Source: a virus (Duplodnaviria > Heunggongvirae > Uroviricota > Caudoviricetes). From it: DNA of 64,000 nt. The translations under genes and the position numbers were made by a program. Within the stretch, counting starts at the first letter, position 1. Each line of letters starts with the position of its first letter. Positions 6,570-55,685 of this stretch are shown one piece after another. Under the pieces are notes generated by a model that saw only the letters and a program-made list of their open reading frames with translations, made no database searches and was not told where the DNA came from. The stretch lies in IMG/VR virus record IMGVR_UViG_2571042445_000002; one strand, given 5' to 3'.

Positions 6570-7475
6570 ATGAGATTAGTCGCCTTTAAAAACATATACG
6601 TCTATCGCCTTGCCCGCGAAATAAAACTGGACTCAACCACCGTTAGTGATGCCTTAAGCCAATTCACATTCACTCCATGCGCATCACAAGAAATGGCAAA
6701 AGTCGGATGGGTGCCGGTTCTGGCTGACAACCTGATCCATGAATACCACGGTTTTCTACTTCTCCAGCAACAGCGAGAAATTAAGCTCCTGCCCTCTCAT
6801 GTCATTAAGGAGGAAGTGCAGAAAAAAGTGGAAAAGCTCGAAAATGAGCAATCTCGTAAGCTGAAGAAGTCGGAAAAAAACACCCTGAAGGATGAAGTTC
6901 TCCACTCTTTGTTGCCTCGCGCATTCACTCGCAAATCATTGTCGCGAATCCTTATTGATCGCGACAACTATCTGGTCTTCGTAGAAGCTTCCAGCGCCAG
7001 AAAAGCTGAAGAAATGCTGGCGCTCTTACGTAAATCACTTGGCAGCCTGCCAGTGATTCCATTCACGCCGATAGAACCGCTCGAAATGACTATGACCGAA
7101 TGGTTCAAGTCAACATTTCCTCAAGGCTTTAAAGCAGGCGAAGAAGCCATATTGAAATCTCTGTTCGATGACGGCGGCGCAGTTCGTTGCAAGAAAGTAG
7201 ACCTACAGTCAGAGGAAATAATGACTCATATTGAAGCCGGAAAAGTTGCAACAACAGTTGCAATCAACTGGCAGGACCGCGCGACCTTCAGGTTAAACGA
7301 TGACATGAGCATCAAAGCACTGACGTTTTGCGATGATCTCTATGACCAGAACGATGACATCGACCGTGAAGATGTTGCCCAGCGATTTGATGCTGACTTC
7401 ATTCTGTTCACAAGCGAATTATCCGCGATGTTTAGCTCGCTGGTGGAGGCCATTGGCGGTGAAGCAGAGCATTAA
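6570..7475 (+). CDS. rdgC: recombination-associated protein RdgC
   Basis: N-terminus MRLVAFKNIYVYRL, internal LKKSEKNTLKDEVLHSLLPRAF and DIDREDVAQRFDADFIL, C-terminus GGEAEH closely parallel E. coli RdgC as recalled; no obvious SD. Confidence 0.8.
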   Translation: MRLVAFKNIYVYRLAREIKLDSTTVSDALSQFTFTPCASQEMAKVGWVPVLADNLIHEYHGFLLLQQQREIKLLPSHVIKEEVQKKVEKLENEQSRKLKKSEKNTLKDEVLHSLLPRAFTRKSLSRILIDRDNYLVFVEASSARKAEEMLALLRKSLGSLPVIPFTPIEPLEMTMTEWFKSTFPQGFKAGEEAILKSLFDDGGAVRCKKVDLQSEEIMTHIEAGKVATTVAINWQDRATFRLNDDMSIKALTFCDDLYDQNDDIDREDVAQRFDADFILFTSELSAMFSSLVEAIGGEAEH

Positions 7476-7491
7476 TAACCGACCGCTGGCG

Positions 7492-8139
7492 GTGAGTCTT
7501 TGTGATTATACAGGGAATATGGTTTCCCCCTGGCTGGAACACGGCATTGATGCAGTCATTGTCGATCCGCAACACCAGGAGTCCGGCAGCCAATTGATGG
7601 AGTCAGGTGCTGTACTCACACGTATCAGCGCAATTATTGACAGTGATGAGGTCTACAATTTCCTTCGGAAAAATTTGCACAGAGTTGTATTTTTAGCCGG
7701 TTTCCCTCCGTGTACTGACCTGGCTGTATCTGGCGCACGCTGGTTCGCAGATAAAGCGAAAAAAGATCCGGTTTTCCAGTTCAAAGCAATGCAGGTTGTC
7801 TGGCAGTGTTACGACATTGCAAAGATGATTGGTTGCCCGTACATGATTGAAAACCCGGTCAGCCAAATATCGACATTCTGGCGTAAACCTGATCACATAT
7901 TCCATCCTTATCACTTCACTGCATATTGCAAGGAAGACAATTACACCAAAAAAACATGCCTGTGGAGCGGACAAGGATTCATCATGCCAACTCCGCGAAT
8001 CGACGAGTCGTTAGGTGATCCAGACAACCGAATACACAAGGCACCGCCAGGACCTGAAAGAGCGAATTTTCGTAGCGCGACACCTTACGGTTTTGCAAGA
8101 GCTGTATTTGAAGCAAATAAGGAGGGAATCCGTGGCTGA
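7492..8139 (+). CDS. short C5-cytosine DNA methyltransferase-like protein (start uncertain: GTG 7492 or ATG 7519)
   Basis: Motif GFPPCTDLAVSGARW resembles C5-MTase PCQ motif IV; MIENPV resembles ENV motif VI; N-terminal SAM motif degenerate; only ~215 aa. Confidence 0.45.
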   Translation: MSLCDYTGNMVSPWLEHGIDAVIVDPQHQESGSQLMESGAVLTRISAIIDSDEVYNFLRKNLHRVVFLAGFPPCTDLAVSGARWFADKAKKDPVFQFKAMQVVWQCYDIAKMIGCPYMIENPVSQISTFWRKPDHIFHPYHFTAYCKEDNYTKKTCLWSGQGFIMPTPRIDESLGDPDNRIHKAPPGPERANFRSATPYGFARAVFEANKEGIRG

Positions 8140-9049
8140 TATTGGTGCTAAATTTATTTCTTATAGCGACAATCATCGTCCTGCGGCGGAAGCCACTATC
8201 AGCCATATGCGACGTATTCGCTCGGAGGACGAATTTGATCGCCCCGTCTTTAAGTGGGTCGGCGGCAAATTTTCTGCACTGCCCATTATCTTCGAACACC
8301 TGCCCCACGGAAAACGGTTGATAGAACCTTTCGTTGGAGGTGGCGCTGTTTTCACTAATGCCGGATTTAAAAGCAACCTGCTGAACGATATCAATAATGA
8401 CCTGATTAACTTCTATCAGACATTGCAGCGTGAAGGGCATTCTCTTATCACACTGGCATATCGTTTTTTTCAGGATTACAACTCTGCTGATGCATTTTTG
8501 AATGTTCGCAATGCATTCAACAATGGTGCTTATGATTCCCTTCACCATGCAGCGGCGTTCCTGTATCTCAATCGTCATTGTTTTAATGGCGTCACTCGCT
8601 ATAACCGTAAAGGAGAGTTCAACGTCGGATATGGAAAGCAGAAATCCCCCCACTTCCCTCTCGCGGAAATGGAGGCGTTCCTGGCTGACGATATTTCAAA
8701 GTATTCGGAATTTGTGTCCGGCGATTTTGCTGGTGTAATTGAGGCTGCAGGGAATGATGATGTGATTTTCTGCGATCCCCCCTATGAACCATTGCCCGAC
8801 ACTACCGGATTTACAAATTACTCAGGGCATAGCTTTAGGTTTGAAGATCAACAACGGCTGGTGTCACTGCTGGTGGATGCCCACAGACGCGGAGCGAAAA
8901 TTGTGATAACAAACAGTGGTGCGCCTAACATTCGCGAACTTTACGTTGGCAATGGCTTCAAGGTGTATCCTATGCCATCCCGTCGCTCTGTATCCTGTAA
9001 AGCATCAACCCGAATGATAGCTAACGACATTATAGCCACGCTCAATTAA
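8132..9049 (+). CDS. dam: DNA adenine methyltransferase (Dam family, GATC-type)
   Basis: FKWVGGK...EPFVGGGAVF (motif I) and DPPY (motif IV) in Dam order; GTG start at 8132 preceded by AAGGAGGG; alternative ATG at 8207; overlaps previous gene by 8 nt. Confidence 0.8.
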   Translation: MADIGAKFISYSDNHRPAAEATISHMRRIRSEDEFDRPVFKWVGGKFSALPIIFEHLPHGKRLIEPFVGGGAVFTNAGFKSNLLNDINNDLINFYQTLQREGHSLITLAYRFFQDYNSADAFLNVRNAFNNGAYDSLHHAAAFLYLNRHCFNGVTRYNRKGEFNVGYGKQKSPHFPLAEMEAFLADDISKYSEFVSGDFAGVIEAAGNDDVIFCDPPYEPLPDTTGFTNYSGHSFRFEDQQRLVSLLVDAHRRGAKIVITNSGAPNIRELYVGNGFKVYPMPSRRSVSCKASTRMIANDIIATLN

Positions 9050-9183: not shown

Positions 9184-9471
9184 TCATTTTGTATCCTCAG
9201 ACTCTGCAAGCATGAGGATAGCATGGCGGATCATATTCAATTTGCTGCGATTATGCTTTTTGCTTAACGCATCAAGTACCTGGTACTCGTATTCATTGAA
9301 GCCAACACGAATGGATTTAAAATCACGTGGGGCGTCCTTATCGAGCACTTTGTTGTCTTCTGGTTGCTCACCCGGCACCAAATCAGCCTTACTGGCAAAA
9401 TCCTCAATTCGGCGTTCAAGATCGGGGTCTTTTACTTCGGGGGCTTTTACCGATTTACGAGGCTTAATCAC
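9184..9471 (-). CDS. small partition protein, ParG-like (candidate centromere-binding protein)
   Basis: 95-aa ORF overlapping the parA stop by 8 nt; basic N-terminus, C-terminal helical segment; size and position typical of type Ib ParB/ParG. Confidence 0.45.
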   Translation of the reverse strand: MIKPRKSVKAPEVKDPDLERRIEDFASKADLVPGEQPEDNKVLDKDAPRDFKSIRVGFNEYEYQVLDALSKKHNRSKLNMIRHAILMLAESEDTK

Positions 9472-10105
9472 TTAATAACTCCTTAACCAACATCTGGATT
9501 TCACCTTTAGCTTTCCCGTTGTCCATCTCAACAACGCCCTTCCCTTCAGCCATGCAATCGCGGTAAACCTTACGATCACGAATGATGGTTTTCAGCAACT
9601 TCAGTTGCGGATATTCAGCCAGGTACTCTTTGGCCTCATTGGTTTCATTCACAACCGGATTGGATGGGGCCATTGTTAAGACTGCGAACGCCTTAATGCT
9701 AGGATTAGGCATCAGGTCCAAAGCCTCTTCAAACACTTCAACAAAGTGTGCCAGCGTGTCTAAATCTGGTTGAGATGGTCTAAATGGGACCAACACAATA
9801 TCTGCAGCGGTTATGCCTGTACGCATCTCTTTGCTATCGCGCCCGGCTGTATCAACAACTACAAATTCATAACGCTTATCCAGATCGAGAAGTGTTTCTC
9901 GAATATTACCAAACTTCTGGACACAATGAATTACAGGAGAAACCTCTGCCGTGTTACGGTCAGCTGCCCAGCGGGCAGCTGTTCCTTGCTTGTCTGCATC
10001 TAGTAACACTACATCCTTATTTTCGCGGGCAAGCTCCGCACAGATGTTTACGCTTGTGGTTGATTTTCCACAGCCACCTTTTTGGCTGACTACCAATATA
10101 ATCAT
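9464..10105 (-). CDS. parA: ParA-family partition ATPase (small type Ib)
   Basis: Deviant Walker A VVSQKGGCGKSTTS at N-terminus; 213 aa. Confidence 0.8.
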   Translation of the reverse strand: MIILVVSQKGGCGKSTTSVNICAELARENKDVVLLDADKQGTAARWAADRNTAEVSPVIHCVQKFGNIRETLLDLDKRYEFVVVDTAGRDSKEMRTGITAADIVLVPFRPSQPDLDTLAHFVEVFEEALDLMPNPSIKAFAVLTMAPSNPVVNETNEAKEYLAEYPQLKLLKTIIRDRKVYRDCMAEGKGVVEMDNGKAKGEIQMLVKELLSD

Positions 10106-10390
10106 ATCCGTTCCTCGGTGTTATTTTGGTATCAAACTGGTTCCAAACAGAAGCCTTATTGATGCGGTTTTGGCTCTATAGTGGAGTCACTATGCTTTGC
10201 AAAAGTATAACACTAAACACTCTAAATTTACCCTCTGTTGCATCCTGTTTAACACGAAATCAGCCTCAAAGTGGAACCAGACACAAAACAGCACCATAAC
10301 AACACCGTTTTGGTACTAAAAGAACACCAAATTAGAACCATAACAGTATAAAAAAGGCTGCAAATTGCAGCCTTTGAAGATGTAGATTTG
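10106..10390. repeat. repeat-rich region upstream of parA (candidate parS/operator)
   Basis: GGAACCAGA, TGGTTCC, AACACCGTTTTGGTACTAAAAG repeated and inverted relative to 9095-9180. Confidence 0.4.
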
Positions 10391-10756
10391 TTAATCAGGG
10401 AGTGAGTTTGCCAAATTCTGTGCAGAGCGGCTTTTCGAAACGCCAGGTTTTTTAACATCCGCTGAGGCTGAGGGGTTTCCTTCAGGGTTTTCCCGAACTT
10501 CAGGCGAAATTTCAAGAAATGAAACCAGCATTTTTCTGATCACTTCAGGGCTATTATCACCGGATAAAAGCGATGCCAACATGGGAGGTAATCTGCTATC
10601 AACCTCGCCAAGAGCGATACCTGCAAGCATCGCTGTGCGCGCCATATCATTGCGATCTCTTAATGGATGGCCCTCAAGTTTTGCATCAGCATATTGCTCA
10701 CTGGCGTTAAGACCAGGACGAAGATAAAACAATACTTTTCGACGTTCCTGAGACAT
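10391..10756 (-). CDS. parR: ParR/StbB-like partition adaptor
   Basis: 121 aa directly downstream of the ParM-like gene; N-terminal RRKVLFYLRPGLNASEQ resembles R1 ParR ribbon-helix-helix region as recalled. Confidence 0.5.
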   Translation of the reverse strand: MSQERRKVLFYLRPGLNASEQYADAKLEGHPLRDRNDMARTAMLAGIALGEVDSRLPPMLASLLSGDNSPEVIRKMLVSFLEISPEVRENPEGNPSASADVKKPGVSKSRSAQNLANSLPD

Positions 10757-10766
10757 GGCAACCTCA

Positions 10767-11726
10767 TCAACCGATAGATTTTAGACCATAGACAAGAGCA
10801 AGTTGTGGATCATCAGCAACGAAAAACCTATCGTCACGAATGTTTACCTGCTCACGGATAGCATCAGCAACAAGCGGCGCGCCGCCACCAATGACCATAA
10901 CATGCGTGTATCCTTTGAAATCACTGATCACATCCAGTACGCGTGTACGGAGTCGTTCTATGCTTGACGAAATGGCTTTCTTAACATCATCAATAGCAGA
11001 CGGATCGTTAATATTGTCGGTCAAATAATCCTCATCATCACGATTAATGATTAATTGATCGACATTATAATTAGAGGTTTCGGTATTCGCTTTTGCAAGT
11101 GCCTGTCTGACCTCTTTAGTTACCAGCGAAACGCCGAGATTAGAATCGCCAAATACGCGAGAAACGGCGGTCATTTGCCCGGCGACCATCGACACATCCA
11201 GAGTAGTCCCACCAAGATCAACAATAAGCACAGAATGCGCTGGCACAAGGCTGTCGCACAGACCGATCCCTGCGGGTATTGACTCCGGGCGCACAGTCAC
11301 TTTTTTGATAGTAAAAACCTGACCTTTGTTAAGGGTGACTGGGCGCATCAGGCTGGCCTTTTTCCGCTCAATATTTTTCATGTTGTATTGTGCGTCGTCG
11401 TCATAAAACTCTGCCAGTGGCAACGTGACAACTATTTCCACTTCTTGAGGCTCAATGCCACTTGTAAGCAGGGCATGATGAACAGCAAGCACATTAAGCG
11501 GGCTGTATTGCCATTCAACGTTATTCGTCGGCAGCACATCCGGCGAGATCAAGTCATATGAATATTTTTCGTCATCAATGATGTAGTTAAACGGCTTTCC
11601 TGCGCCAAATGTGGCGGACCATCCACGTTTAAAACTGTTCGGACAGATATGGGTTCGAGTTTCCCCGTCCTGTTCCCACAGCATTTTGATATTGGTAGAA
11701 CCATCGTCGATAAAAATGCGCATCAT
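10767..11726 (-). CDS. parM: ParM/StbA actin-like partition ATPase
   Basis: MMRIFIDDGSTNIK... and VIGGGAPLVADAI motifs parallel R1 ParM over full length; start MM at 11726 with GGAG 7 nt upstream. Confidence 0.8.
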   Translation of the reverse strand: MMRIFIDDGSTNIKMLWEQDGETRTHICPNSFKRGWSATFGAGKPFNYIIDDEKYSYDLISPDVLPTNNVEWQYSPLNVLAVHHALLTSGIEPQEVEIVVTLPLAEFYDDDAQYNMKNIERKKASLMRPVTLNKGQVFTIKKVTVRPESIPAGIGLCDSLVPAHSVLIVDLGGTTLDVSMVAGQMTAVSRVFGDSNLGVSLVTKEVRQALAKANTETSNYNVDQLIINRDDEDYLTDNINDPSAIDDVKKAISSSIERLRTRVLDVISDFKGYTHVMVIGGGAPLVADAIREQVNIRDDRFFVADDPQLALVYGLKSIG

Positions 11727-11740
11727 ATTGCTCCACTTCT

Positions 11741-11911
11741 GAGACACATTTGAGAAAGAATTGAATTTTATATGAGAAAACAAAATAAGACCAGAAGTTA
11801 GATAGCGTAGAAAGCATCAAACTAGAGACGTAAGAGAGACACAAAAGAGACTTAGATGATACATGATGTACCCATGATACCCTTTTGAGACAAATCAGAG
11901 ACAAATATGAG
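11741..11911. repeat. parC-like iteron array (GAGACA repeats at ~10-11 bp spacing) upstream of parM
   Basis: GAGACACA at 11741 and 11835, AGAGAC at 11824 and 11846, GAGACAAAT at 11887 and 11898. Confidence 0.5.
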
Positions 11912-20574: not shown

Positions 20575-21126
20575 ATGACACCTTCTGAACTATTAGAAAG
20601 CGTTAAAGCGCGATTCAATCCTCTTCTTGTACGGGAAGAGGAAACACTGAAAGCATTCCTGCTCAAAGCGTTGACTACTTACCAGGACAGGGCAGGCGTA
20701 GTTAAGGCGTTAAAGCTGGAGAAATCAGACGGCACGGCGATCCCTGTTCCGGATGATTATCTGTCTCTGGTCCACGTCACTGACCACAACGGGCTTCTGG
20801 TTTACGCCGACGAGATTGCCGGTTTTGTCGAACTTGAGCTTACCGGTTCTGAACGCTGGCCTTTCAAGATGCAATACCTTGTAAATCTCCGCGATCGCAA
20901 CCTGGATGAGTGGCAAGTGCCACCTGCGATTATCGGAATGCTTGAGGAATATCTTGAAGCACTTATCAATGTCCGCAACGTTGCCCGCCAGCGAAGGGCG
21001 TCAATTGATGGCAAGTTTGATTACTCCGATCTTCCTGATGAGGCGACGCTCTACGCGCGTGTTCAGGAGATAGAAGAAAAAATGGCAGCCAACCGGGCCA
21101 TTATCCCTGGTGCTACCATTTTTTAA
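20575..21126 (+). CDS. hypothetical protein
   Basis: 183-aa ORF. Confidence 0.4.
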   Translation: MTPSELLESVKARFNPLLVREEETLKAFLLKALTTYQDRAGVVKALKLEKSDGTAIPVPDDYLSLVHVTDHNGLLVYADEIAGFVELELTGSERWPFKMQYLVNLRDRNLDEWQVPPAIIGMLEEYLEALINVRNVARQRRASIDGKFDYSDLPDEATLYARVQEIEEKMAANRAIIPGATIF

Positions 21127-21139
21127 CACGGAGGGCTAC

Positions 21140-21847
21140 GTGAGTATTTTTAGTGCTACAACGCAAACGCTAGCCAGTGCGGTATCGTTTAGCGCGAAAT
21201 CGTTCACCAGCAACCTTATCAGCGACATTCTGGATAGAGCGGTGTCTGGCAGTGGCGTTAGTGGGAGCTACGGCAATGACATCGCTTACGGAAAGAACGT
21301 AGTTGCTACGGCTATGCGTATCCGCTATGCCCAGGGCTGGCAGTGGACGGTAGACGTAGACGGATTAAGCGGCTTTGATATGTTCGTTAAGGACATCACT
21401 TACAGTAGCGGGAATATTGAAACAGAAAGCAAAATCATTGGTAGCGTCGAGTTCAATAAGCCAACGCACGTAACCGCCGGGCCGGTAACAATGACGGTCA
21501 GAGACACAGAAGACGGCAAAATAATGAATTGGTTCAAAGAGCGCCGCGCTCGTGTAACCAATAGCGATGGTACGCTAAACCTGCCGCCAGATTATCTCAT
21601 GAATATCAGGCTATACCGCGTTACACAGGAAGGCGGGAAAGAGCTGGAAGAGGAAATGCGTGTATTTCCGACTCAGATAGGAGAGATCAGCCGCTCACGT
21701 GATCAGGTGTCCGAATTCTTGTCCTATCCGATCACGTTCCAGCGATACACATCTGCCGGTTCCGGCCTGTCCGCATTAGTCAATGGAGCTGCTGGTTTAG
21801 CAACAAGCGCACTTAAAAGCGCCGCCAGCAACGTGATCAAGTTTTGA
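21140..21847 (+). CDS. hypothetical protein
   Basis: GTG start 21140 with GGAGGG 5 nt upstream; 235 aa. Confidence 0.4.
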   Translation: MSIFSATTQTLASAVSFSAKSFTSNLISDILDRAVSGSGVSGSYGNDIAYGKNVVATAMRIRYAQGWQWTVDVDGLSGFDMFVKDITYSSGNIETESKIIGSVEFNKPTHVTAGPVTMTVRDTEDGKIMNWFKERRARVTNSDGTLNLPPDYLMNIRLYRVTQEGGKELEEEMRVFPTQIGEISRSRDQVSEFLSYPITFQRYTSAGSGLSALVNGAAGLATSALKSAASNVIKF

Positions 21848-21890
21848 AATGCAATATTAAAGTGCGAGAAGGAGAGGAAAGGACAAGCTT

Positions 21891-22081
21891 GAGGGCAATT
21901 TTTACACCAGCTATTTACACCAGTGATGGCATTTTTTACACATTCCTTATTAATCAATAAATTACTAATAATGTTAGCCGTTAAAGATCCAACCAACTCA
22001 CTAATGGTGTAAGAATTGCCCTCAATCTCTCATCTTTAAGGGCCAATCCTACACCTACAGAGAGGTGTAGAAATTGCCCTT
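21891..22081. repeat. AGGGCAAT(Y)2-3TACACC repeat family in both orientations, including a 44-bp imperfect palindrome at 22038-22081
   Basis: Copies at 21891-21908 (+), 22006-22025 (-), 22038-22055 (+), 22064-22080 (-); last two separated by 8-bp spacer. Confidence 0.5.
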
Positions 22082-22098
22082 AAGACTGCTGATGGAGA

Positions 22099-22330
22099 AA
22101 TGTTGACTATAGGCGAAATGGCTTACAACTAATGTTGACTGTACTCGATCCCGATCACAAAACATTGACTACACGCGACAAGAAATGAGAAAAGATTGAC
22201 TATAAGCGACAAATACTCAATGAAATAGCTGGTTTATCCATTGATCATGTGAAAAAGCTAATAACTAAATCCGCCAGCGTCAATGTTTGTCGCGTATAGT
22301 CAACGCTTAGAATCGCACACAGTCAATGTT
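22099..22330. repeat. incA-like iteron cluster downstream of repA (iterons in both orientations)
   Basis: TTGACTATAGGCG 22103, TTGACTGTACTCG 22135, TTGACTACACGCG 22166, TTGACTATAAGCG 22196; inverted CGCGTATAGTCAACG 22291, CGCACACAGTCAATG 22315. Confidence 0.55.
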
Positions 22331-23213
22331 ATGGATTTCGTTTATGGATCTGGAAACCTATTTTCCGACCATTCTTTATCTCTGAAAATTTAAGATATTC
22401 AACAGCTTCTAAGTCTTTCATGGCTTTACGAATCACACTGTTCTGAACGCTAACCGAGGACTTGAGGTTCAATCTGGCGCGAAGGCGCTCAATACTCACT
22501 GGCGCAGGGTTTGAAGGTAACGCTTCGAAAAACGTATAAAGCACCTTGGCTGTCTCTTTCCTGCCAAGTTTATCGAGCATTTTGAGCTTCAATATTCGCT
22601 TATAGTCAACGTAGTACAACTCAGACAACTGCTTCTGCGGTTGGATTCTTATAATGTCATTTTCAGTATCAAGTTCACTAAATGCCAATAAATTCATCTG
22701 GATATAACGAACATGTTCTTTGCTGGTGGGCAAGTTGAACTTCAGCAACGTCTGCTGAATACGCGTTAGAGAGTCGCCAATGCTCTTGCGAAAAGCCTTG
22801 GACAGCCGCTTCCTTGGATAACCGCAACGATCCACAAATTCAGAGAATGTTAGGGTGATCACACCATCATTGTCTGGTTTATAGTCAAACAATGCAGATG
22901 TAATGCCTATCCAAACCTTAAAATCAGTATCCATATCCAGGCGTGGCCCATGAATCTCAATACCCTGATACCCTTCCTGCTCTACAATCTTCAGGCTGGA
23001 CAGTTCTTCTGTCGCATCAGTTGAGTTAGTTAAACCGGCGTTCTTGCGACGTAAAGCAACACTGGTAGATTTCAATGTGGGAACAAACACCCCAAGCCGC
23101 AACAAAGCTATCGGCTGAATAGTGCTATTATTGTTAGGCTTTAAGCTGTGGATTTCTCCGGTATTCCCTGATATTTCCTCAACGTTCAGAAAGCCTTTTT
23201 TGTCATCTACCAT
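22329..23213 (-). CDS. repA: plasmid replication initiator RepA (P1 RepA-like)
   Basis: TIQPIALLRLGVFVP, HGPRLDMDTDFKVWIGI and C-terminal RLRARLNLKSSVSVQNSVIRKAMKDLEAVEYL parallel P1 RepA as recalled; flanked by iterons. Confidence 0.8.
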   Translation of the reverse strand: MVDDKKGFLNVEEISGNTGEIHSLKPNNNSTIQPIALLRLGVFVPTLKSTSVALRRKNAGLTNSTDATEELSSLKIVEQEGYQGIEIHGPRLDMDTDFKVWIGITSALFDYKPDNDGVITLTFSEFVDRCGYPRKRLSKAFRKSIGDSLTRIQQTLLKFNLPTSKEHVRYIQMNLLAFSELDTENDIIRIQPQKQLSELYYVDYKRILKLKMLDKLGRKETAKVLYTFFEALPSNPAPVSIERLRARLNLKSSVSVQNSVIRKAMKDLEAVEYLKFSEIKNGRKIGFQIHKRNP

Positions 23214-23261
23214 CCTGTTATTTCCTTGATTGACGGGGCTTTATAGCCAAATGAAAGATAC

Positions 23262-23505
23262 TTATCCACAGCCGTCTGAGGGCTGAGAGAATTATCGCAT
23301 ACAGTCAATGTTTATATCGCATATAGTCAACATTAAATCGCACATAGTCAACATTAAATCGCACATAGTCAACATTAAATCGCACATAGTCAATGTTGAT
23401 CGCCATTTAGGCCAGTGATGGCGCGGCTCGCAGCGATCCGGGATCTTCTTTGGATCTTACTGGTTCTCTTTGGGATCTATTTATTGGATCTACCCTGTGG
23501 ATAAA
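23262..23505. other. oriR-like plasmid origin: DnaA boxes, five 21-bp direct iterons, cluster of six GATC sites
   Basis: TTATCCACA 23262-23270; iterons TCGCAYAYAGTCAAYRTT at 23295, 23317, 23338, 23359, 23380; GATC at 23398, 23435, 23442, 23452, 23473, 23487; TGTGGATAA 23496-23504. Confidence 0.6.
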
Positions 23506-23575
23506 TAGGTTAAAGTCAAAATCACACACTCCCTATCCTCCAGCCAAACGAGTACCGACTTTTCTGGAGGAATCC

Positions 23576-24400
23576 TTGAACATTCCCAAATTCCCATTAC
23601 CTTCACAGCCTGAAATAGAAATTCAGTTTCATGCACCTACTGTGAAAGATGCCCTGAAATATTCAGACATCAATCCGGCAGAAGATGAGGCAACCACAAC
23701 AGAATACCTCAACGCCATGCAAGACGGCGAAATTAACGACAGCTCAAACTGGACAGTTCAGGATCGCAGAACCGCGCTTTGGTGGATCTTTGTCAATTCC
23801 AGACCAGATGCCGTAATGACTTACTCATACGAGTGTGGTCACTGTGGAAACGTTCATCACGCAGATATTAACCTTTCAGACCTTGCCGAAACGGTAGAAA
23901 TCCTGACTGTCCCGCCGTTTATTAAAACTATGGTCCCTATAAACGGAGTACCAACCGAGTGGACGCTTAAACCACTAACAGGGAAAGGAGCTGAATTGCT
24001 TGAGCGTATGCGCGCCACTTTGCCTGATATGAAAACTCCAGAGTACAGTGCTGAGGTTGCTCGTCTCCGCATAGCTGAGTTGGCCTTGTGTACATCTCTG
24101 AACGACGATCCAGAAGACTTCACACAAGCTGCAAACAGACGATTCGATATCATTGAAAACATGGCTCTGGAAACCGAGTTTACCCCTCTGGTAGCTCGCA
24201 TTCAGCTCATGCAGAAAGACCTTCGCCACGGCTTAAAAATGGCTATTGAACGAGGCACAAGCCGCCTGATCCTACCGCCACAACGCTGCAAAAACGCTAA
24301 GGAGGGTGCAGACGTGACTACCACGCTGTACGCCCCATTTCTCAATAGAGAGTTTATCCCATCAATTAGATCTGAATGGATGGCTAACCATTATCAATAA
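23576..24400 (+). CDS. hypothetical protein with CxxC zinc-ribbon-like motif (start uncertain; TTG 23576 has GGAGGA SD)
   Basis: Track ORF 23450 begins inside the origin; first start with SD is TTG 23576; motif YECGHCGN. Confidence 0.35.
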   Translation: MNIPKFPLPSQPEIEIQFHAPTVKDALKYSDINPAEDEATTTEYLNAMQDGEINDSSNWTVQDRRTALWWIFVNSRPDAVMTYSYECGHCGNVHHADINLSDLAETVEILTVPPFIKTMVPINGVPTEWTLKPLTGKGAELLERMRATLPDMKTPEYSAEVARLRIAELALCTSLNDDPEDFTQAANRRFDIIENMALETEFTPLVARIQLMQKDLRHGLKMAIERGTSRLILPPQRCKNAKEGADVTTTLYAPFLNREFIPSIRSEWMANHYQ

Positions 24401-48848: not shown

Positions 48849-51800
48849 TTGGACAAAATAATTGATTCAATTAGCCAGGCCACCAGCATTGGGGCGCTGA
48901 TTGAAATTGTTAGTCGGTTGCATAAACCGCGAGCTGTAGTGACCTTTGGCGTTAAGAAAGTCGATGGCGTCAGTATTCAGAAAACACGCCGGGCAGCAAA
49001 CAACGCCGCAGTAAATCTTCTTAATTCCCTTCCGCCTGGCTTCGATGGGGCGAAATTAACTGACGAACAGCGCCAGATTCTTGCCGGGTATACCGGTGAA
49101 GGCGGCCTGACAGATGGTGAGGGCAGCCAATACGAATACTATACGCCACAGTTTATGGCAGAAGGTATATGGGATCTCTTCGGCGACTACGGTATTGATA
49201 GCGGTCACGTACTGGAACCGTCAGCAGGCACAGGTATTTTCCAGGAGACAAAACGGCAGGGCATGATAATGACCAGTGCCGAACTGTCTCCGATCTCCGG
49301 TCGAATAAACCAGCTTTTGCACCCGGAAGATGATGTGAATATCGGGGCGTTTGAGGCGCTGGCGGCGAAAGATGCAATGTATGACCACGCAGTTGGTAAC
49401 GTACCGTTTGGCGAAGGGCGTTCCGGCGTCGCCGGGCTTGATCCGGCATATGCAAACGAGAAGAACGTTGGCAATTATTTTGTGCTGCGCACGATCGACA
49501 AGGTTAAGCCTGGTGGACTAATTGTATTGGTGGTGCCGAATGGCATGACCGATGGTACGAAATACAAAAAATTGCGCGATAAAGTCAGCCGTAAAGCGGA
49601 ATTTTTGGGCGCGCATCGTATGCCTTCTGGTACGTTCAGCGAATCCGGTACAGATACCGTGGTGGACGTATGGGTATTGCGTAAACACCCGGAAACCTTC
49701 CTGGAGATGATCCCCGACACGGATGATGCAACGCTCAAATCGGCAAACGTCCTTTGGGATACCTTCCTCAAAGGGAAATGGTTTACAACCGAAGGGAAGC
49801 GATTTGTTTACGGCGACATGGAACGCACCAGCTTCCGCAATACCCTGGTGGTGAAAAAGGACGGTCGTGTATCCAATGAGTCGATGAAAACCGCGTTATC
49901 ATGCCGCTTTGAAAGCCGTATTAATTGGGATTTGCTCGGAGTAACTACCCAGGCATGGCAGGGCGCAAAAGTAGGGGATAAGCGTCTTGTAGGCGGTATC
50001 TGGCATGAGTTTGATGGCCTGAAATGGGTTAAGGACACGACAACCAAATCCTCCGCGCTTGATGTAAGTCGATATGGTGTTTCGACGTTTGGCGATCTGC
50101 AGATCGCGTTCCAGTCAACAAACGGGATTCTGGCTTTGTCATGGGACCAGATATCGGCGATCGCGTCCGACTATCCATCGGTTGTCAGTGATGAAGTGGC
50201 AGCAATGATTCGCTTTGCTGGCAAACAGCGAGAAAAAGACAGGGAGCGCGTTATGCGCGGTGCGTTGATAGGGCAGTTGATCAACAAGGCACTTGATTTG
50301 CGTAACCTGGGGGTGAACGTTGATGACAAACTGGCAGATGCATCCCGCCTGGCGGCAGCAGAAGTTGCGAAGTATGGACCACCGCACGCGATTAAGCTGA
50401 ATGGGCTTGCTGAAGCTGGCGCTAAAAACTGGATGACGTTCACTGGCAATGTGAAACAGGATGGTTCCACTTCTGACCTTCTGGCAGGGCGACTTGATGT
50501 AACGGATGGTGCTGCCGGTATTGACTTTACACGTCCGGAACAAGTGATAGCACATCTTTTCAGTGATGTAGCCCTTAATCCTATAACGCTGGGCGACTTT
50601 CGTGAGGCGTTTGCTGGTGAACTGCCAGAGGACGACGACGCGGCCCTTGAATACCTGGCGAAATTTGATGATATCGCTATTGATGGGTATGGCTGCCTGC
50701 TGCCGATGGACCGCGCCACCAGCGGCGATATTGTAACCAAAACAGCATTGCTGGTGGGCTGGCGTGATGCATCAACAGGTGAGCAGAAAGCGAACTTTGA
50801 GCGTCAGTTGGCGAAAATCGAAGAGAAACGCATTTTCACGCCACTAAATAAAGTCACCGTTAATCTGAACGCCCGCTGGCTGGATCGCCGCTTGATAAAA
50901 GAGTTCCTGGCAGAGCAGGGCTATGACGAGTTTAAGTACACTGAACCTGATCTGAAGGTCGTCGATGGCATTCTGGTATCTCCGGACGATTACGAAGGTA
51001 AGGACGGGGTATTTACCGGCTATCAGCTACGAACCGTAAACGGCAAAAACGGGAATGAGTTCAAGAAGGCCAACAATAAAGACGGCTTCCTGAACCAGTT
51101 AGAAAACTACCTGAACGGTGTTAAACCGCGTGGGCAGAACGCTAACGAGTACCTGGATAAAATTGCTCAACTGGAAGTTAGCTTTAACGACTGGTTACGC
51201 ACCCACCCGCAGGCGGATCAGATAGCCCGTGACTATAACGACGCATTCAATGGCTTCATTCCGTTCACGCACTCTAACGCACCGCTTGGCCTGGAAGGGA
51301 TTAGTGGAAAGCGCATTCCTCTGACTTATCAGAATGAAGAAGTTCGTCGCTTGTCAGAAGATGGGCGCGGCATCATGGGATTTGGTACCGGGCTGGGTAA
51401 AACCACGACCGCGCTTGCGCTTGAGGCGTATAACTTCGAAACAGGTCGTACTAAACGCACGTGTATTGTTGTTCCGAAGGCGGTTTATCAGAACTGGTAT
51501 CACGAGGCACAGAGCTTCTACAGTGCTGATGCCTTCGCCAATATGATGTTTATCGGTCTGGATGAAGTTCGTGATGACAGCGGAAATATTCTGACCGCTC
51601 CGGTGCTTGATGAAAATGGCGAACCCCGCCTCGACAGTAACGGGCAGCCTCTTACCAGAAATGTTGTGAAAGAGTCCGCCAGCGCCGTTATCGTTCAGCG
51701 CATGAACATGATCCCGTCGTCAAATTGGCGAACGGTCATCATGACAAAAGAACAATTCGCGTCTATCCCGCTACGAGAAAAAACCATCGAGGAGAACTCA

Positions 51801-54800
51801 CAGCAAGCTGTCTTTAATGCTGTGGAAATGGGGCGTCTTGACCTGGCGTCTGGTAAACACCGTGATGCGCAGAAGAAGAACAAGATTAAGGATCAGGCCG
51901 CGAATACCGGTACAACGAAGAAGCAGAATATCCCGTACTTTGAGGATATGAACTTCGATAGCGTGATAGCCGACGAGGGGCATAACTACCGCAACTCCTT
52001 TAATGCCGGGCGTGAAGCGGGACAACTGGCATATTTGCCTAACCCGGCAGTATCCAAGATGGCCCGCGACATGGCTGTAAAAGCTGCGTACATGATGAAA
52101 CGCAACAACGGGCGTGGTGTAGTCATGCTGACGGCAACACCGCTGGTGAACAGTCCGATTGATGCCTTCAACATGCTGTCTACTGTCATTCCGCAGGAAG
52201 AGTGGATGCGCATGGGCATCATTACGCCTGATGATTTCGTTCGTGTGTTTGGTAAAACAGCCACAGTTCAGGTCCAGAAAATTTCCGGGGAAGTGGAAGA
52301 GAAGCAGGGGCTGGTTGGCTTCCAGAACCTTGATGGCCTGCGTGGTATTTTCCATCGCTGGACTACTCTGAAGACTGCTGCGGACGTCGGGGCGACGGTT
52401 AAAATCCCTGATATTGTCGAGAATACCTTGCAGATCCCGATGACAGGGGAGCAGGAGGCTGCTTATGAAGAGCTTCGTAAGCGTGCACAGGAGTTAAGTA
52501 GTAAAGATGCGCTGACGGTTGATGAAAACGGGCATATCACAAACGAAAAACCGGATGATTTCATCTTCTCCATCATCCGCGACATGGATAAGGTTGCTAT
52601 AGATCCGGATCTGTATGCCAGTGCGATTACATTCCAGTTCCCCGTTGAGCTTGCAGACAAGGTAAAAGCTATTGCTGATGCCCTGCCAAAAGTAGCTGGC
52701 GGTAAAGTGGCAGATGATGCAGACGAGGCCGAAGAAGACGGCGCTGGTGGGCTGGTTAGTACGCGCACCAGTAAGGTAGTGAAGACCACCTTTAGTGAAC
52801 ATCCGGCGCATGTTGAAATACGTGCCAGCATTGAACTGGAAGCTGAAATACTGAAGGCCATTGCTGCCGCCGGGATTGATATGCAGCAGGTATCACACCC
52901 AATCCCGCCGAAGTATGCCGCGCTGATCGAAAACCTTCGTGAAGGTCTGAAGAACGGTAAACAAATTGTCTTCATTGATGAAAAAGCCCAGCACCAGAAG
53001 CTGCGCCGTATTATCGCCAGTGCACTGCAAATGCCGGAGCAGGAGATAGGCATTATCAATGCGACGACCGTTAGCCAGGCTGGCGGCATCAAGCTGAAGA
53101 AGGTGAATAAGCCGACTGAACCTACTCCGAATAAAAATGGTGAATACAAAGAAGGGGCATGGGAAACCTACTACAGCAAACTTGCCCAATATGAGGATTA
53201 TCTCTCAGCTAAAAATGATGCTGGCCTTGAGGGTATGGAAGGCATTGCCGCCGACTATAACGAAGGGCGCACGCGCATAATTATCTGTAACAAGAAGGCT
53301 GAAGTAGGTATTAACCTGCATATCGGGACAACCGATATCCACCACCTGACACTACCCTGGACACCAGCCAGTATCGACCAACGAAATGGGCGCGGTGCGC
53401 GCGTAGGTTCACCGCAAGAGAAGGTCAATGTTCACTACTATTGTGGCAAAGGCACATTCGACGACTTCCGTCTGGATACGCTGAAACGTAAGAAAGACTG
53501 GATCAAGATGGTGATGACCTCCGACATGTCAGAGATCGCCAATGGTGATGCGGATGATGCTGATGAACGCGCCATTATGCTGGCGGCAAACCCGGAAGAA
53601 CGCCGCGCAATCATGGCTCGCCAGGCGCAAGAGCGTGAAGAACGTCTGAAACTGAAAGCACAGCGCGAGGCCAACAATGCTCTCGATATCTACCTGAAAG
53701 CGGCAAACGCCGCTGGAAAAGATATCGGCATGATGGAGACAGAACTGAAAAGCGCGATGGAACAGATAGAGTATTACCAGCGAAATCTTGACGACCTGAT
53801 AAAAGCGGGTACGAACAGGAATGGGCAAAAATTCGCGCTTGAGCAGTTGAGTAGCTACAGAAAACGTGCGCGGGTGCTGCGGTTTGCGATCACCAGGGCA
53901 AAAGACGCGGATACCATAATGAAACGCTCTCGTGGTGATGTGGAGCGCGCTATTAAGTCTGGTGTGCTGGATATCAGTATCGATGTTATTCAGAACCCAC
54001 AGGAATATATGCGCACTGACAAGAATATCCTGTTGCATAAAGGTAGTTATTACCGTGCAGTCATTGATGATCGCGAAACAACAGCGATTGTCCGGGTGGA
54101 AAAAATTGACGGTGAAAAAGCACAATACCTCTGCCGTATCGCCTGGCTGGATAGAGCAAGTCGTTACGCTCGAGCACCGGGGTCAATCGTTACATTGCCG
54201 TTTGACTCTGTGATTGAAGCGGTAACTTTTGAAGAGGGGGTAGCTGAATCGCGCGCAACGGCTGCGCGTGGTGTTCAGTGCCACCAGCTATCAACAATAC
54301 TTACTCGCGATCAGTTCTATGATGCTATTCGCAATGGGGTAATGAATGTTATTGCTGGTAAACCTGGTAATGCATGGGGCGGTGGGTCAGCTATTAAATA
54401 CTGGGCATATCGCACAGATGATGGTCAGATCGCGCTGTCATCGGCCTATGATGGCGTGATAGGCCAAAAAATCGGGCGAGCATCGGATATAGCACCTGAA
54501 CGATGGATATATCCAGATGGCAACGATGAGGCGCTGAAGCGTGAAGTGGCAAAAATACAAGCCAGTGATAACCCGCTGAATATCGTGGACGGCGAGGGAT
54601 TCCTCCAGGCATTGTATGGGTATGATTACATCCAGGGAATGCAGGCATGGGGCGCACAGGCAACGATGGATGATGTTGTCCAGGAGTTCGAAAACTGGAT
54701 GGCTGGGCGTGGTCTGTCAGGTCGTTCGCTTAATAAAGTCACTTCTGAAGATATTCTTAGCTTGTTCCGCAAACCGTCCGGAGAAGGTCTGGAATCATTC

Positions 54801-55685
54801 TGGAGGACCGTGCTGGCATACCGTTTATTCAAGGGCAGAATGAAAGCCTTTAGCAATATCGATGATATTGAACGGATGTTTAATCAGGTCAAGATCGCCA
54901 AAATTAAGACGAAGATCGAAAAAACACGTTCTGCGCTGGTGGCCTGGCGCGATGCATTGTTTGAGCAATATAAATCACTCAGTGATGCAGATGGATGGGC
55001 GGCATTGGAACAGTTGGCGAATAATGGGGTAGATGGAGCGAAACTCGCCATAGTCCAGGCTGATAACCCCCTGGAATCACCGGCAGCACAGTGGATTAAG
55101 GTGGGGGCTGTCATCAATGCATTTGATGAAAAACACATTAGTAAGGACGATTTTGCTGATGCTGTTTCTGTTAATCGCCTGGTAGAAATGGCTACCCGCC
55201 GCGCCCGTGAGTTGAAAGACGGTGACTATGTGAATGAGTTGCCGGATGCGCTCAAATCAGCAACGTGGCAAGACTATGTATCGCTGAAAAACGGCGGGGC
55301 CACCGAATCAGAGATCGCGGAAAGGCTTGAACAGGCTGAAAGCAAAAGAGAAGAGCAGGCGGCAGTGGCTGAAGCCAGAGCTGATGAAGCGGCGAATGAT
55401 GACTATATCATTGTGGTTAATGATAAGCCGATTCGCGCTAAGGCGCGTGTTCGCGGGCGCTGGTGGAGTGTCAGCGAGGACGTCGGTGCGGTTTATCTCA
55501 TTGCCGACCAACCAGGTTCCTCGACAATACGGAACGCCAAAGACGCGATTAAGAAGATTGGCGGGCGTTTCTGGAATTTTGAAGCAAACCCGGTTGCTGA
55601 TGTGAACTTTGACCGTCCTGCATGGATGGTATCTACGCGTTACTCGGTAGATGAACTGCGTAAAATAATCGCCGATGCGGCCTAA
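48849..55685 (+). CDS. darB: DarB-like giant N6-adenine methyltransferase / SF2 helicase fusion (anti-restriction candidate)
   Basis: 2278 aa; MTase motif I VLEPSAGTGIF and motif IV-like GNVPFG near N-terminus; helicase motifs GFGTGLGKTT (Walker A), VIADEGHNYRN (DExH), LTATPLVNS, RNGRGARVG; size matches P1 DarB as recalled; TTG start. Confidence 0.7.
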   Translation: MDKIIDSISQATSIGALIEIVSRLHKPRAVVTFGVKKVDGVSIQKTRRAANNAAVNLLNSLPPGFDGAKLTDEQRQILAGYTGEGGLTDGEGSQYEYYTPQFMAEGIWDLFGDYGIDSGHVLEPSAGTGIFQETKRQGMIMTSAELSPISGRINQLLHPEDDVNIGAFEALAAKDAMYDHAVGNVPFGEGRSGVAGLDPAYANEKNVGNYFVLRTIDKVKPGGLIVLVVPNGMTDGTKYKKLRDKVSRKAEFLGAHRMPSGTFSESGTDTVVDVWVLRKHPETFLEMIPDTDDATLKSANVLWDTFLKGKWFTTEGKRFVYGDMERTSFRNTLVVKKDGRVSNESMKTALSCRFESRINWDLLGVTTQAWQGAKVGDKRLVGGIWHEFDGLKWVKDTTTKSSALDVSRYGVSTFGDLQIAFQSTNGILALSWDQISAIASDYPSVVSDEVAAMIRFAGKQREKDRERVMRGALIGQLINKALDLRNLGVNVDDKLADASRLAAAEVAKYGPPHAIKLNGLAEAGAKNWMTFTGNVKQDGSTSDLLAGRLDVTDGAAGIDFTRPEQVIAHLFSDVALNPITLGDFREAFAGELPEDDDAALEYLAKFDDIAIDGYGCLLPMDRATSGDIVTKTALLVGWRDASTGEQKANFERQLAKIEEKRIFTPLNKVTVNLNARWLDRRLIKEFLAEQGYDEFKYTEPDLKVVDGILVSPDDYEGKDGVFTGYQLRTVNGKNGNEFKKANNKDGFLNQLENYLNGVKPRGQNANEYLDKIAQLEVSFNDWLRTHPQADQIARDYNDAFNGFIPFTHSNAPLGLEGISGKRIPLTYQNEEVRRLSEDGRGIMGFGTGLGKTTTALALEAYNFETGRTKRTCIVVPKAVYQNWYHEAQSFYSADAFANMMFIGLDEVRDDSGNILTAPVLDENGEPRLDSNGQPLTRNVVKESASAVIVQRMNMIPSSNWRTVIMTKEQFASIPLREKTIEENSQQAVFNAVEMGRLDLASGKHRDAQKKNKIKDQAANTGTTKKQNIPYFEDMNFDSVIADEGHNYRNSFNAGREAGQLAYLPNPAVSKMARDMAVKAAYMMKRNNGRGVVMLTATPLVNSPIDAFNMLSTVIPQEEWMRMGIITPDDFVRVFGKTATVQVQKISGEVEEKQGLVGFQNLDGLRGIFHRWTTLKTAADVGATVKIPDIVENTLQIPMTGEQEAAYEELRKRAQELSSKDALTVDENGHITNEKPDDFIFSIIRDMDKVAIDPDLYASAITFQFPVELADKVKAIADALPKVAGGKVADDADEAEEDGAGGLVSTRTSKVVKTTFSEHPAHVEIRASIELEAEILKAIAAAGIDMQQVSHPIPPKYAALIENLREGLKNGKQIVFIDEKAQHQKLRRIIASALQMPEQEIGIINATTVSQAGGIKLKKVNKPTEPTPNKNGEYKEGAWETYYSKLAQYEDYLSAKNDAGLEGMEGIAADYNEGRTRIIICNKKAEVGINLHIGTTDIHHLTLPWTPASIDQRNGRGARVGSPQEKVNVHYYCGKGTFDDFRLDTLKRKKDWIKMVMTSDMSEIANGDADDADERAIMLAANPEERRAIMARQAQEREERLKLKAQREANNALDIYLKAANAAGKDIGMMETELKSAMEQIEYYQRNLDDLIKAGTNRNGQKFALEQLSSYRKRARVLRFAITRAKDADTIMKRSRGDVERAIKSGVLDISIDVIQNPQEYMRTDKNILLHKGSYYRAVIDDRETTAIVRVEKIDGEKAQYLCRIAWLDRASRYARAPGSIVTLPFDSVIEAVTFEEGVAESRATAARGVQCHQLSTILTRDQFYDAIRNGVMNVIAGKPGNAWGGGSAIKYWAYRTDDGQIALSSAYDGVIGQKIGRASDIAPERWIYPDGNDEALKREVAKIQASDNPLNIVDGEGFLQALYGYDYIQGMQAWGAQATMDDVVQEFENWMAGRGLSGRSLNKVTSEDILSLFRKPSGEGLESFWRTVLAYRLFKGRMKAFSNIDDIERMFNQVKIAKIKTKIEKTRSALVAWRDALFEQYKSLSDADGWAALEQLANNGVDGAKLAIVQADNPLESPAAQWIKVGAVINAFDEKHISKDDFADAVSVNRLVEMATRRARELKDGDYVNELPDALKSATWQDYVSLKNGGATESEIAERLEQAESKREEQAAVAEARADEAANDDYIIVVNDKPIRAKARVRGRWWSVSEDVGAVYLIADQPGSSTIRNAKDAIKKIGGRFWNFEANPVADVNFDRPAWMVSTRYSVDELRKIIADAA

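Follow-up and report, generated by a model that had tools for sequence, protein, structure and literature searches.

The window analysed in this work is a stretch of 64,000 nucleotides of phage DNA, in which the initial annotation had proposed a complete iteron replicon at positions 22099-23505. The central gene of this block is repA (22329-23213, minus strand), which is an intact open reading frame of 294 aa running from 23213 to 22329. The encoded protein is 41% identical to P1 RepA over the full length and 85% identical at the amino acid level to the RepA of the P1-like phage RCS47, which has the same length. More distant relatives, some of which are named RepFIB RepA in their source records, show 44-54% identity with E-values of about 1e-70 to 1e-89. 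By homology, the protein is thus an initiator of the P1/RepFIB family.

In Pfam searches, the Rep3_C domain of RepA passed the cutoff (26.5 bits vs 21.1), and Rep3_N fell slightly short of its threshold (20.4 bits vs 22.4); close homologues of the protein carry PF01051 and PF21205. A search of NCBIfam with RepA gave no match, and sequence comparison with PDB chains gave no match to solved structures. The AF2 model of RepA has a mean pLDDT of 68, with the N-terminal 60 residues disordered, and matches RctB, RepE, pi, the WH1 domain of pPS10 RepA, and TrfA with Foldseek probabilities of 0.8-1.0. These matches indicate two winged-helix domains of the RepE/pi/RepA(pPS10) type and assign RepA to the Rep_3 (WH1-WH2) superfamily of iteron initiators.

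Iterons were searched for in the whole 64-kb window with the pattern TCGCRYAYAGTCAAYRTT, allowing up to 2 mismatches. The pattern was found 12 times, against 0.03 matches expected, and shuffles ruled out chance or low-complexity repeats. Five direct copies with the 18-bp core TCGCAYAYAGTCAAYRTT are located immediately upstream of repA (23295-23397, minus strand). These origin iterons, the equivalent of incC and the predicted RepA sites, start at 23295, 23317, 23338, 23359, and 23380 as matches on the plus strand. Their spacing of 22/21/21/21 bp places them in phase at two helical turns.

The region beyond the iterons contains six GATC sites within 93 bp (23398, 23435, 23442, 23453, 23474, and 23487). 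Nowhere else in the window are GATC sites packed as densely; when the 242 GATC sites of the window were placed at random, six or more were reached in 37 of 5000 placements. Five of the sites belong to AGATCC-type heptamer repeats (23435-23490, minus strand) spaced by 13-21-11-7 bp, among which one degenerate heptamer reads GTTC at 23463-23466. This block, which aligns with the five Dam sites annotated in P1 oriR, is predicted to be the origin core at which the DNA opens and which responds to Dam and SeqA. The sixth site (23398-23401) abuts the distal iteron and is followed by a spacer with the GGCGCGGC motif, the two together covering 23398-23434 on the minus strand. The spacer is GC-rich (0.57-0.58, vs 0.30-0.33 in the iterons), and its GCCGCGCC block does not vary among the window, CP042620, RCS47, and P1. 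RCS47 and further relatives likewise have the GATC at the iteron edge.

The iteron and GATC block is bracketed by the only two perfect DnaA 9-mers in the 64 kb. The outer box (23496-23504, minus strand) is located at the distal end of the origin and reads TGTGGATAA on the plus strand and TTATCCACA on the repA-sense strand; no other perfect TGTGGATAA occurs in the window. In the alignment with P1 oriR, it falls on the tandem DnaA boxes annotated there, and homology with RCS47 and P1 stops at this point. The inner box (23262-23270, plus strand), the only perfect TTATCCACA in the window, lies between the iterons and the repA start. Both boxes had been listed in the initial annotation along with five direct iterons at 21-22 bp spacing and six GATC sites within 93 bp, and every coordinate given there proved to be exact.

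A second cluster of iterons is located downstream of repA, where the same core had been noted in both orientations at 22099-22330. The distal group (22099-22209, minus strand), equivalent to incA, consists of four inverted copies starting at 22099, 22131, 22161, and 22192, with spacings of 32/30/31 bp. The proximal group (22270-22330, plus strand) has the orientation of the origin iterons and contains two good copies, at 22290-22307 and, overlapping the stop codon of repA, at 22313-22330, as well as one degenerate copy at 22270-22287 with 13/18 matches. The proximal group is conserved in RCS47. The control function of all these repeats is read solely from their position and from the analogy with P1 incA, and they might instead form a partition site or a second origin with no copy-control locus present. 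Such a role is very unlikely, as the repeats share the 18-bp core of the origin iterons, so that RepA rather than a partition protein is expected to bind them, and their orientation and 30-32 bp spacing are those of P1 incA. Moreover, they have neither a GATC cluster nor a pair of DnaA boxes, and a separate ParM-type partition operon is located about 10 kb from the cassette. An incA-type control locus is the preferred reading.

One further iteron-like site was detected within repA itself (22596-22613, plus strand), with 16/18 matches to the search pattern, over the codons for VDYKR. It sits in a run of 17 nt identical between the repA genes of the window and RCS47, and is absent at that position from more distant repA relatives. 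Conservation across the family was rejected, since the site is confined to the clade of the window and RCS47; special conservation was also rejected, since the identical run is no longer than other such runs in repA.

The features of P1 used for comparison were taken from the AF234172 annotation and from reference titles, together with general background. The initial annotation had recognized the oriR/incC-repA-incA layout of P1-type replicons, and this layout is accepted because homology of RepA (41%) and of the origin core DNA goes beyond mere resemblance; the arrangement of the iterons agrees with it. Window positions 23408-23504, the GATC heptamer core adjoining the iterons, are 76.5% identical over 97 nt to the annotated P1 oriR core with its Dam sites and DnaA boxes, and within this alignment the AGATCC heptamers, the GCCGCGCC spacer, and a DnaA box are invariant. 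The order of parts is also the same in both: DnaA box or boxes, five heptamer Dam sites, GC-rich spacer, five iterons phased at 21 bp, repA, and control iterons. P1 incC likewise has five iterons with matching spacing, orientation, and helical phasing. In P1 incA, copies 1-6 are inverted at 30-31 bp, as the distal group of the window is at about 31 bp, and copies 7-9 correspond to the proximal group, with copy 9 abutting the repA stop.

Several details, however, differ between the two replicons. P1 has two outer DnaA boxes whereas the window has one, and the inner box of the window is opposite in orientation to the TGTGGATAG found at the equivalent place in P1. P1 has 6+3 control iterons (9 in all), compared with 4+2(+1), or 6-7, in the window; its degenerate GATC heptamer occupies another position; its RepA has 286 aa rather than 294; and the adjacent parAB-parS of P1 is missing beside the window replicon. 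The iterons of P1, GATGTGTGCTGGAGGGAAA, are unrelated to the TCGCAYAYAGTCAAYRTT of the window, and no match to the P1-type iteron was found anywhere in the window at up to 3 mismatches. Because of this unrelated iteron sequence, the replicon can be excluded from IncY.

The nearest described relatives are the replicons of the RCS47/SJ46 group of P1-like phage-plasmids (FO818745, KU760857), annotated as 'RepFIB replication protein A' or RepA. Over the stretch that begins with the proximal control iterons and ends with the outer DnaA box, DNA identity with this group is about 77%. The consensus of the iterons (TCGCRYRYAGTCAAYRTT) is identical, five origin iterons are present, the GATC pattern is the same, including the degenerate heptamer and the iteron-edge site, and the intragenic iteron-like site is shared. 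In RCS47, however, the replicon adjoins parAB and upfA as in P1, whereas in the window it is flanked by tub and pmgB, in a D6-like genome whose ParM-type partition lies elsewhere. RCS47 has five distal control iterons rather than four, and its inner DnaA box (TTATCAACA) contains one mismatch whereas that of the window is perfect. MOB-suite places the two in separate replicon clusters.

A wider set of RepFIB-type replicons from Klebsiella, Salmonella, Pantoea, and others, comprising proteins with the source name RepFIB replication protein A as well as RepB-family plasmid relatives, encodes RepA proteins 44-49% identical to that of the window over nearly the full length. These replicons also have a GATC cluster upstream and iterons flanking repA on both sides. 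Most of their proteins differ in being about 335-340 aa long, with a C-terminal extension, their iteron sequences vary from replicon to replicon, and their hosts are conventional plasmids rather than a phage genome. These sequence comparisons place the replicon within the P1/RepFIB family, outside the P1/P7 IncY specificity, and as a sister of the RCS47-type replicon. The module is a complete and ordinary replication module of the P1/RepFIB type, the origin of which is textbook-like and the behavior of which is predictable from P1.

The one unusual aspect of the module is that it is a swapped-in replicon within a D6-like phage. The window belongs to a D6-like phage-plasmid, which exists in E. 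coli in plasmid form. D6 itself (MF356679) carries its native replicon, with the orf42 Rep, at the same tub-pmgB locus and antisense to the tail genes. That replicon is similarly organized: rep is preceded by five iterons and followed by others in both orientations, and the far end carries a DnaA-like box. It differs in its Rep of 251 aa, which has no detectable sequence similarity to the RepA of the window, in the sequence of its iterons, and in its origin, where no GATC heptamer cluster was seen when the sequence was read by eye. In D6, 12 iterons of the type TGAGGGCAATTTTTACAC flank the rep gene. The downstream ones persist in the window as orphan iterons (21886-22084): copies are present at 21890 and 21924 on the plus strand and at 22007 and 22065 on the minus strand, and a further, degenerate one spans 22036-22056.

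At the left junction of the cassette, a remnant of the displaced rep gene, its stop and last four codons, was found at 22080-22094 on the minus strand, and window positions 22008-22104 align with the terminal part of D6 orf42 and the iterons downstream of it. CP042620 has the same junction. With tblastn, a D6-type Rep was found neither in the window nor in the searched part of a near-identical plasmid. The window therefore falls outside the D6-type replicons, in which an orf42-type Rep gene is flanked on both sides by TGAGGGCAATTTTTACAC iterons; of these parts, it retains only the downstream iterons and the final codons of the gene. As judged from these alignments, a cassette of 1.4 kb (about 22099-23505) has taken the place of the D6-type origin and rep gene, at a site with the tail genes tub and pmgB on either side. 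The locus thus offers a clean replicon replacement, resolved to the base at a fixed site in the tail cluster, with the iterons of the earlier replicon left behind. This replacement is a point absent from the initial annotation. In the same region, Rfam gave only sub-threshold miRNA matches, on the hairpin of the inverted D6-type iterons, and a structured RNA was rejected.

With a probability of roughly 0.9, 22099-23505 is the plasmid-maintenance replicon of the D6-like phage-plasmid, a member of the P1/RepFIB iteron family with a P1-like mechanism, carried on a cassette that replaced the D6-type rep and origin. RepA binding, dependence on DnaA and Dam, autoregulation, and handcuffing would all follow by analogy with P1. 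RepA monomers would fill the five origin iterons phased at 21 bp, and host DnaA would occupy the flanking DnaA boxes. Together, RepA and DnaA would open the adjacent block of GATC heptamers phased at 11 bp, where full Dam methylation would be required for firing and SeqA would sequester the hemimethylated block. The copy number would be kept low in two ways: RepA may repress its own promoter in or beside the origin iterons, and the six or seven downstream iterons may titrate RepA and pair ('handcuff') with the origin iterons. A scan for consensus sigma-70 promoters upstream of repA found none. A possible promoter, TGGATA-17-TATAAA, was read by hand on the minus strand, overlapping the inner DnaA box; because this hand-picked candidate is not conserved in RCS47, the repA promoter is kept as an inferred feature only.

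Methylation-sensitive control of the origin, which the initial annotation had also proposed, can reasonably be inferred from the conservation of the GATC heptamers. Of 77 RepA relatives belonging to other species, 74 contain five or more GATC sites in 70 bp, with spacings of 13-11-11-11/10-7, and this retention at fixed spacing argues for selection on the cluster. The P1 oriR is reportedly dependent on Dam methylation, and the same is said, by title, of the pColV-K30 REPI replicon of Gammie and Crosa (1991). It might be supposed that the replicon works while the GATC cluster serves as a phased unwinding or factor-binding element, its adenine methylation having no regulatory role. A role for methylation here is predicted from sequence comparison, and individual sites appear dispensable, since one heptamer of the window has lost its GATC and P1 has lost another. 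This alternative is nevertheless unlikely, given that the GATC tetranucleotide itself, beyond its phasing, is kept in so many relatives and that the two replicons above are reported to depend on Dam. Regulation through methylation is therefore preferred.

The window also contains the Dam gene named in the initial annotation, an N6-adenine DNA methyltransferase gene of the Dam family (D12 class) at 8015-9049 on the plus strand, outside the replicon and adjoining an RdgC homologue. Its product matches Pfam PF02086 (E=2e-53) and E. coli Dam (2g1p, E=2e-51). Since GATC is methylated by the Dam of the host, the methylation argument does not depend on this gene. Its P1 homologue, dmt, lies behind a C1-controlled operator (AF234172 annotation), and by analogy the gene of the window would be silent in the plasmid state. 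The P1 C1 operator had no match near this gene, and the immunity specificity of D6-like phages presumably differs from that of P1. For the P1-type reading of the replicon as a whole, Abeles et al. are also cited.

Six complete E. coli genomes contain the cassette at ≥99% identity, the records concerned being plasmids of about 93-96 kb. Two plasmids in PLSDB carry it; both are circular, and the sole replicon typed on them by MOB-suite is that of the window (rep_cluster_2164). The element therefore occurs as circular plasmids of about 94 kb. Along with the absence of a D6-type Rep, these natural occurrences speak indirectly for a functional, autonomously replicating cassette. A second 'place' for the query in near-identical plasmids was not reproduced as a distinct locus by blastn and probably reflects the iteron array aligning out of register.

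It is extremely unlikely that the cassette survives only as an inactive remnant and that some other replicon, such as a repL lytic replicon or an unrecognised origin, keeps the 94-kb element. A RepL-type 'lytic replication protein' is indeed annotated on a near-identical plasmid, and the reference plasmid has an annotation table that is by design incomplete. However, repA (294 aa) and all arrays are intact, and one plasmid, 94.7% identical over the wider query region (window 22000-23600), has intact iterons and a repA that is 97.6% identical at the nucleotide level. The cassette replicon is the only one typed by MOB-suite on the two PLSDB plasmids carrying it and, with the native D6-type Rep deleted, loss of the cassette would leave no plasmid-type initiator. 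An active maintenance replicon is the reading retained.

The D6-type replicon is the common form, with about 99 plasmids in PLSDB compared with 2 carrying the cassette of the window. Phage-plasmids have been proposed to exchange replication genes and thereby avoid incompatibility (Pfeifer & Rocha 2024, PMC10879196), and the replacement at this locus fits that proposal. It is conceivable, if rather doubtful, that the swap was adaptive: the P1-family cassette might allow escape from incompatibility with resident D6-type phage-plasmids, the orphan iterons at 21886-22084 might act as decoys that titrate and displace the rival Rep, and the intragenic iteron at 22596-22613 might be an extra RepA site for autoregulation or handcuffing. 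If true, one-way incompatibility would be used here as a weapon.

Since the iterons of the window are the same as those of the RCS47 type, incompatibility is predicted between two otherwise different families of phage-plasmids, some members of which carry resistance genes. RCS47-type P1-like plasmids are common: among the 5426 complete E. coli genomes covered, about 408 carry them.

The replication gene repA (ORF 23213..22329, minus strand, 294 aa) lies among copies of the iteron TCGCRYAYAGTCAAYRTT. A pattern search tolerating 2 mismatches or fewer returned 12 matches in the 64-kb window (0.03 expected), all confined to 22099-23397. Five direct copies at 23295-23397, spaced by 22/21/21/21 bp (TRF period 21), form the origin array. 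Downstream of the gene are four distal control iterons of the opposite orientation (22099-22209; spacing 32/30/31 bp), a degenerate copy (13/18; 22270-22287), and two proximal control iterons in origin orientation (22290-22330), the second of which overlaps the repA stop codon. A further iteron-like site (16/18) is located inside repA, over the codons VDYKR (22596-22613). It is also present in the repA of RCS47, a P1-like phage-plasmid, within a 17-nt run identical in both, and was not found in more distant repA relatives; identical runs of this type are not rare between the two repA genes.

Two perfect DnaA boxes, TTATCCACA (23262) and TGTGGATAA (23496), each unique in the window, flank the block of iterons and GATC sites. 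The six GATC sites (23398, 23435, 23442, 23453, 23474, and 23487) form the densest cluster of the window; random placement of its 242 GATC sites put at least 6 within 93 bp in 37 of 5000 trials. The iterons, GATC sites, DnaA boxes, repA, and downstream iterons listed in the initial annotation were all recovered by reading of 21800-23800 and by repeat and pattern searches. A repA promoter was not confidently located by consensus scan and reading of the upstream sequence.

Over its full length, RepA is 85% identical to RCS47 RepA and 41% identical to P1 RepA. Among the remoter homologues recovered by database search (44-54% identity), some are called RepFIB replication protein A in their source records, and many contain Pfam Rep_3 domains. 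In the window protein, Rep3_C scored above the Pfam threshold and Rep3_N just under it. The top PDB matches of an AlphaFold model (18 homologues as input; mean pLDDT 68; first ~60 residues disordered) were exclusively iteron initiators: RctB, RepE, pi, pPS10 RepA WH1, and TrfA.

At the DNA level, 22267-23504 is 76.6% identical to RCS47, and 23408-23504 is 76.5% identical to oriR, the origin core of P1. In GenBank record AF234172, from which the P1 features were taken, the latter stretch is annotated as five Dam sites and the oriR DnaA binding site; beside it lie five incC (origin) iterons, repA, and nine incA (downstream control) iterons. In a four-way alignment, P1 and the window share the outer DnaA box, the AGATCC heptamers, and the GCCGCGCC spacer with little or no change; their iteron sequences are unrelated. 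P1 incA consists of six inverted iterons at 30-31 bp and then three in origin orientation, of which the final one abuts the repA stop. The downstream array of the window follows the same incA design, with four inverted iterons at 30-32 bp and then two or three direct ones that end in a copy overlapping the stop. The window replicon differs from that of P1 in having one outer DnaA box rather than two, an inner box of opposite orientation, fewer control iterons, and no adjacent parAB; the P1 replicon is located between gene 23/parAB and upfA.

Every sequence-level character of the P1/RepFIB family is present in the window replicon, and the earlier proposal of a P1-type replicon is supported by the homology of RepA and oriR and by the incA-like array. 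The replicon is a new example of a very familiar type. Because no P1-type iteron was detected in the window by pattern search, it is not of the IncY specificity of P1. Its iteron consensus is common to RCS47-type plasmids; cross-incompatibility with that common group is therefore predicted.

The GATC cluster is a hallmark of the P1/RepFIB-type replicon family. Relatives of RepA (45-85% identity) were sampled at 80 loci, with one genome taken for each species. Upstream sequence was long enough at 77 of them, and 74 of these contain at least 5 GATC in a 70-bp stretch preceding repA. Spacing among the relatives is stereotyped (13-11-11-11/10-7), and that of the window, 13-21-11-7, is in the same register, one of its heptamers being degenerate (GTTC, 23463-23466); the degenerate heptamer of P1 is a different one (AGGTCC). 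That relatives this diverged keep the GATC tetranucleotide itself points to selection on methylation sites, not phasing alone.

Methylation-sensitive control had also been linked to a Dam gene in the window. A Dam-family methyltransferase gene does exist at 8015-9049 (E=2e-51 against E. coli Dam), but it adds little to the origin argument because E. coli Dam already methylates GATC. The gene adjoins an RdgC homologue, and the pair mirrors the hrdC-dmt arrangement of P1. P1 dmt sits behind a C1-controlled operator in the AF234172 annotation, so by analogy the window gene would be silent in the plasmid state; a search here for a P1-type C1 operator gave no match. Its ORF overlaps, in another frame, a 268-aa upstream ORF (7333-8139). 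Since the P1 counterpart, Dmt, is presumably a single two-domain protein, the Dam-like gene may be split, frameshifted, or mis-started.

By extension from P1 biology, RepA monomers would bind the five origin iterons and DnaA the flanking boxes, and the two would jointly open the heptamer region. The origin would require full Dam methylation and be sequestered when hemimethylated. RepA would repress its own promoter, and the downstream iterons would titrate RepA and handcuff the origin, limiting copy number. The P1-type mechanism was reportedly treated by Abeles & Austin 1987; Abeles et al. 1990, 1993; Brendler et al. 1991; Mukhopadhyay et al. 1993; and Park & Chattoraj 2001, and the REPI replicon of pColV-K30 by Gammie & Crosa 1991. 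A review describes DnaA alone as able to start origin opening in P1, with RepA greatly assisting (PMC5043065). The cassette, a 1.4-kb module of origin and repA, is the sole typed replicon of circular plasmids of ~94 kb, and this natural occurrence is the strongest available evidence that it functions. The hosts include humans, a pig, a wild bird, and a monkey.

The replicon region is 99.9% identical to NZ_CP085065.1, a circular plasmid of E. coli (94,191 bp) with phage tail, head, portal, pacase, Cre-like recombinase, phd/doc, and RepL-type genes. In the structural genes, a 24-kb query matches phage D6 (MF356679) over 57% of its length at ~84% identity. These matches, together with the near-identical plasmid carrying phage genes, therefore identify the window as a D6-like phage-plasmid, a family distantly related to P1. 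Two kinds of partition-type genes lie near each other within 9464-11783, both on the minus strand: a ParA/MinD-like ATPase gene (213 aa; 9464-10105) and an actin-like segregation gene of the ParM type (10767-11783), accompanied by a small stability protein. They are unlike the ParAB system of P1. A 2278-aa protein (48849-55685) contains SNF2/helicase domains and a weak N6-adenine methylase domain, and presumably resembles the P1 antirestriction protein DarB. Its gene lies ~2.6 kb earlier than the map of the near-identical plasmid predicts; extra genes (TnpB, HicA toxin) are annotated upstream of it in that plasmid.

In D6, the tub-pmgB intergenic locus is occupied by another replicon, likewise antisense to the tail genes, with orf42 (251-aa Rep_3 protein) and five upstream and six downstream iterons, TGAGGGCAATTTTTACAC. 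No similarity was found between the orf42 Rep and window RepA. Window 21001-21810 (tub) and 23519 onward (pmgB) align with D6, as does 21884-22104 with the D6 downstream iterons and the extreme end of orf42, whereas the sequence between 22104 and 23519 aligns with RCS47 and P1, not D6. These breakpoints agree with the limits of 22099-23505 first assigned to the replicon. Four good and one degenerate D6-type iterons (21886-22084) are retained, and the last four codons and stop codon of the D6 rep gene remain at 22080-22094. Neither the window nor the searched part of the near-identical plasmid encodes a D6-type Rep; the orphan iterons may be neutral leftovers, or decoys still binding the Rep of D6-type plasmids.

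A more diverged carrier, CP042620.1 (94.7% identical to window 22000-23600), has the same left junction, suggesting one ancestral replacement. In PLSDB, ~99 plasmids have the D6-type replicon and 2 the window cassette; among 5426 complete E. coli genomes, the cassette occurs at 99% identity or more in 6, and its 77% relative (RCS47 type) in 408. The D6-type replicon is therefore ancestral at the locus and the P1-family cassette is the newcomer. MOB-suite places the window, RCS47-type, and D6-type replicons in three different clusters. The actual donor was not found in the collections searched. Replicase exchange among phage-plasmids is a general phenomenon already described (PMC10879196); what is mildly novel here is limited to the clean replacement of the replicon in a D6-like phage-plasmid, the orphan iterons left behind, and the iteron-like site within repA.

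Right after the tub stop of D6 (6925-6966) is a sequence similar to the iterons of P1 incA/incC, ATGTGTGCTGGAGGGTTG (15/18), with a weaker inverted one (~14/18) seen by eye only; this may be a trace of a still earlier replicon exchange, or of cross-talk with P1. A pattern search for the P1-like iteron gave none in the window and none in CP042620, where a similar inverted pair was seen by eye only. As in D6, the replicon lies inside the tail-gene cluster (window 21110-24400) and antisense to it; therefore, late transcription must cross or restart around the origin.
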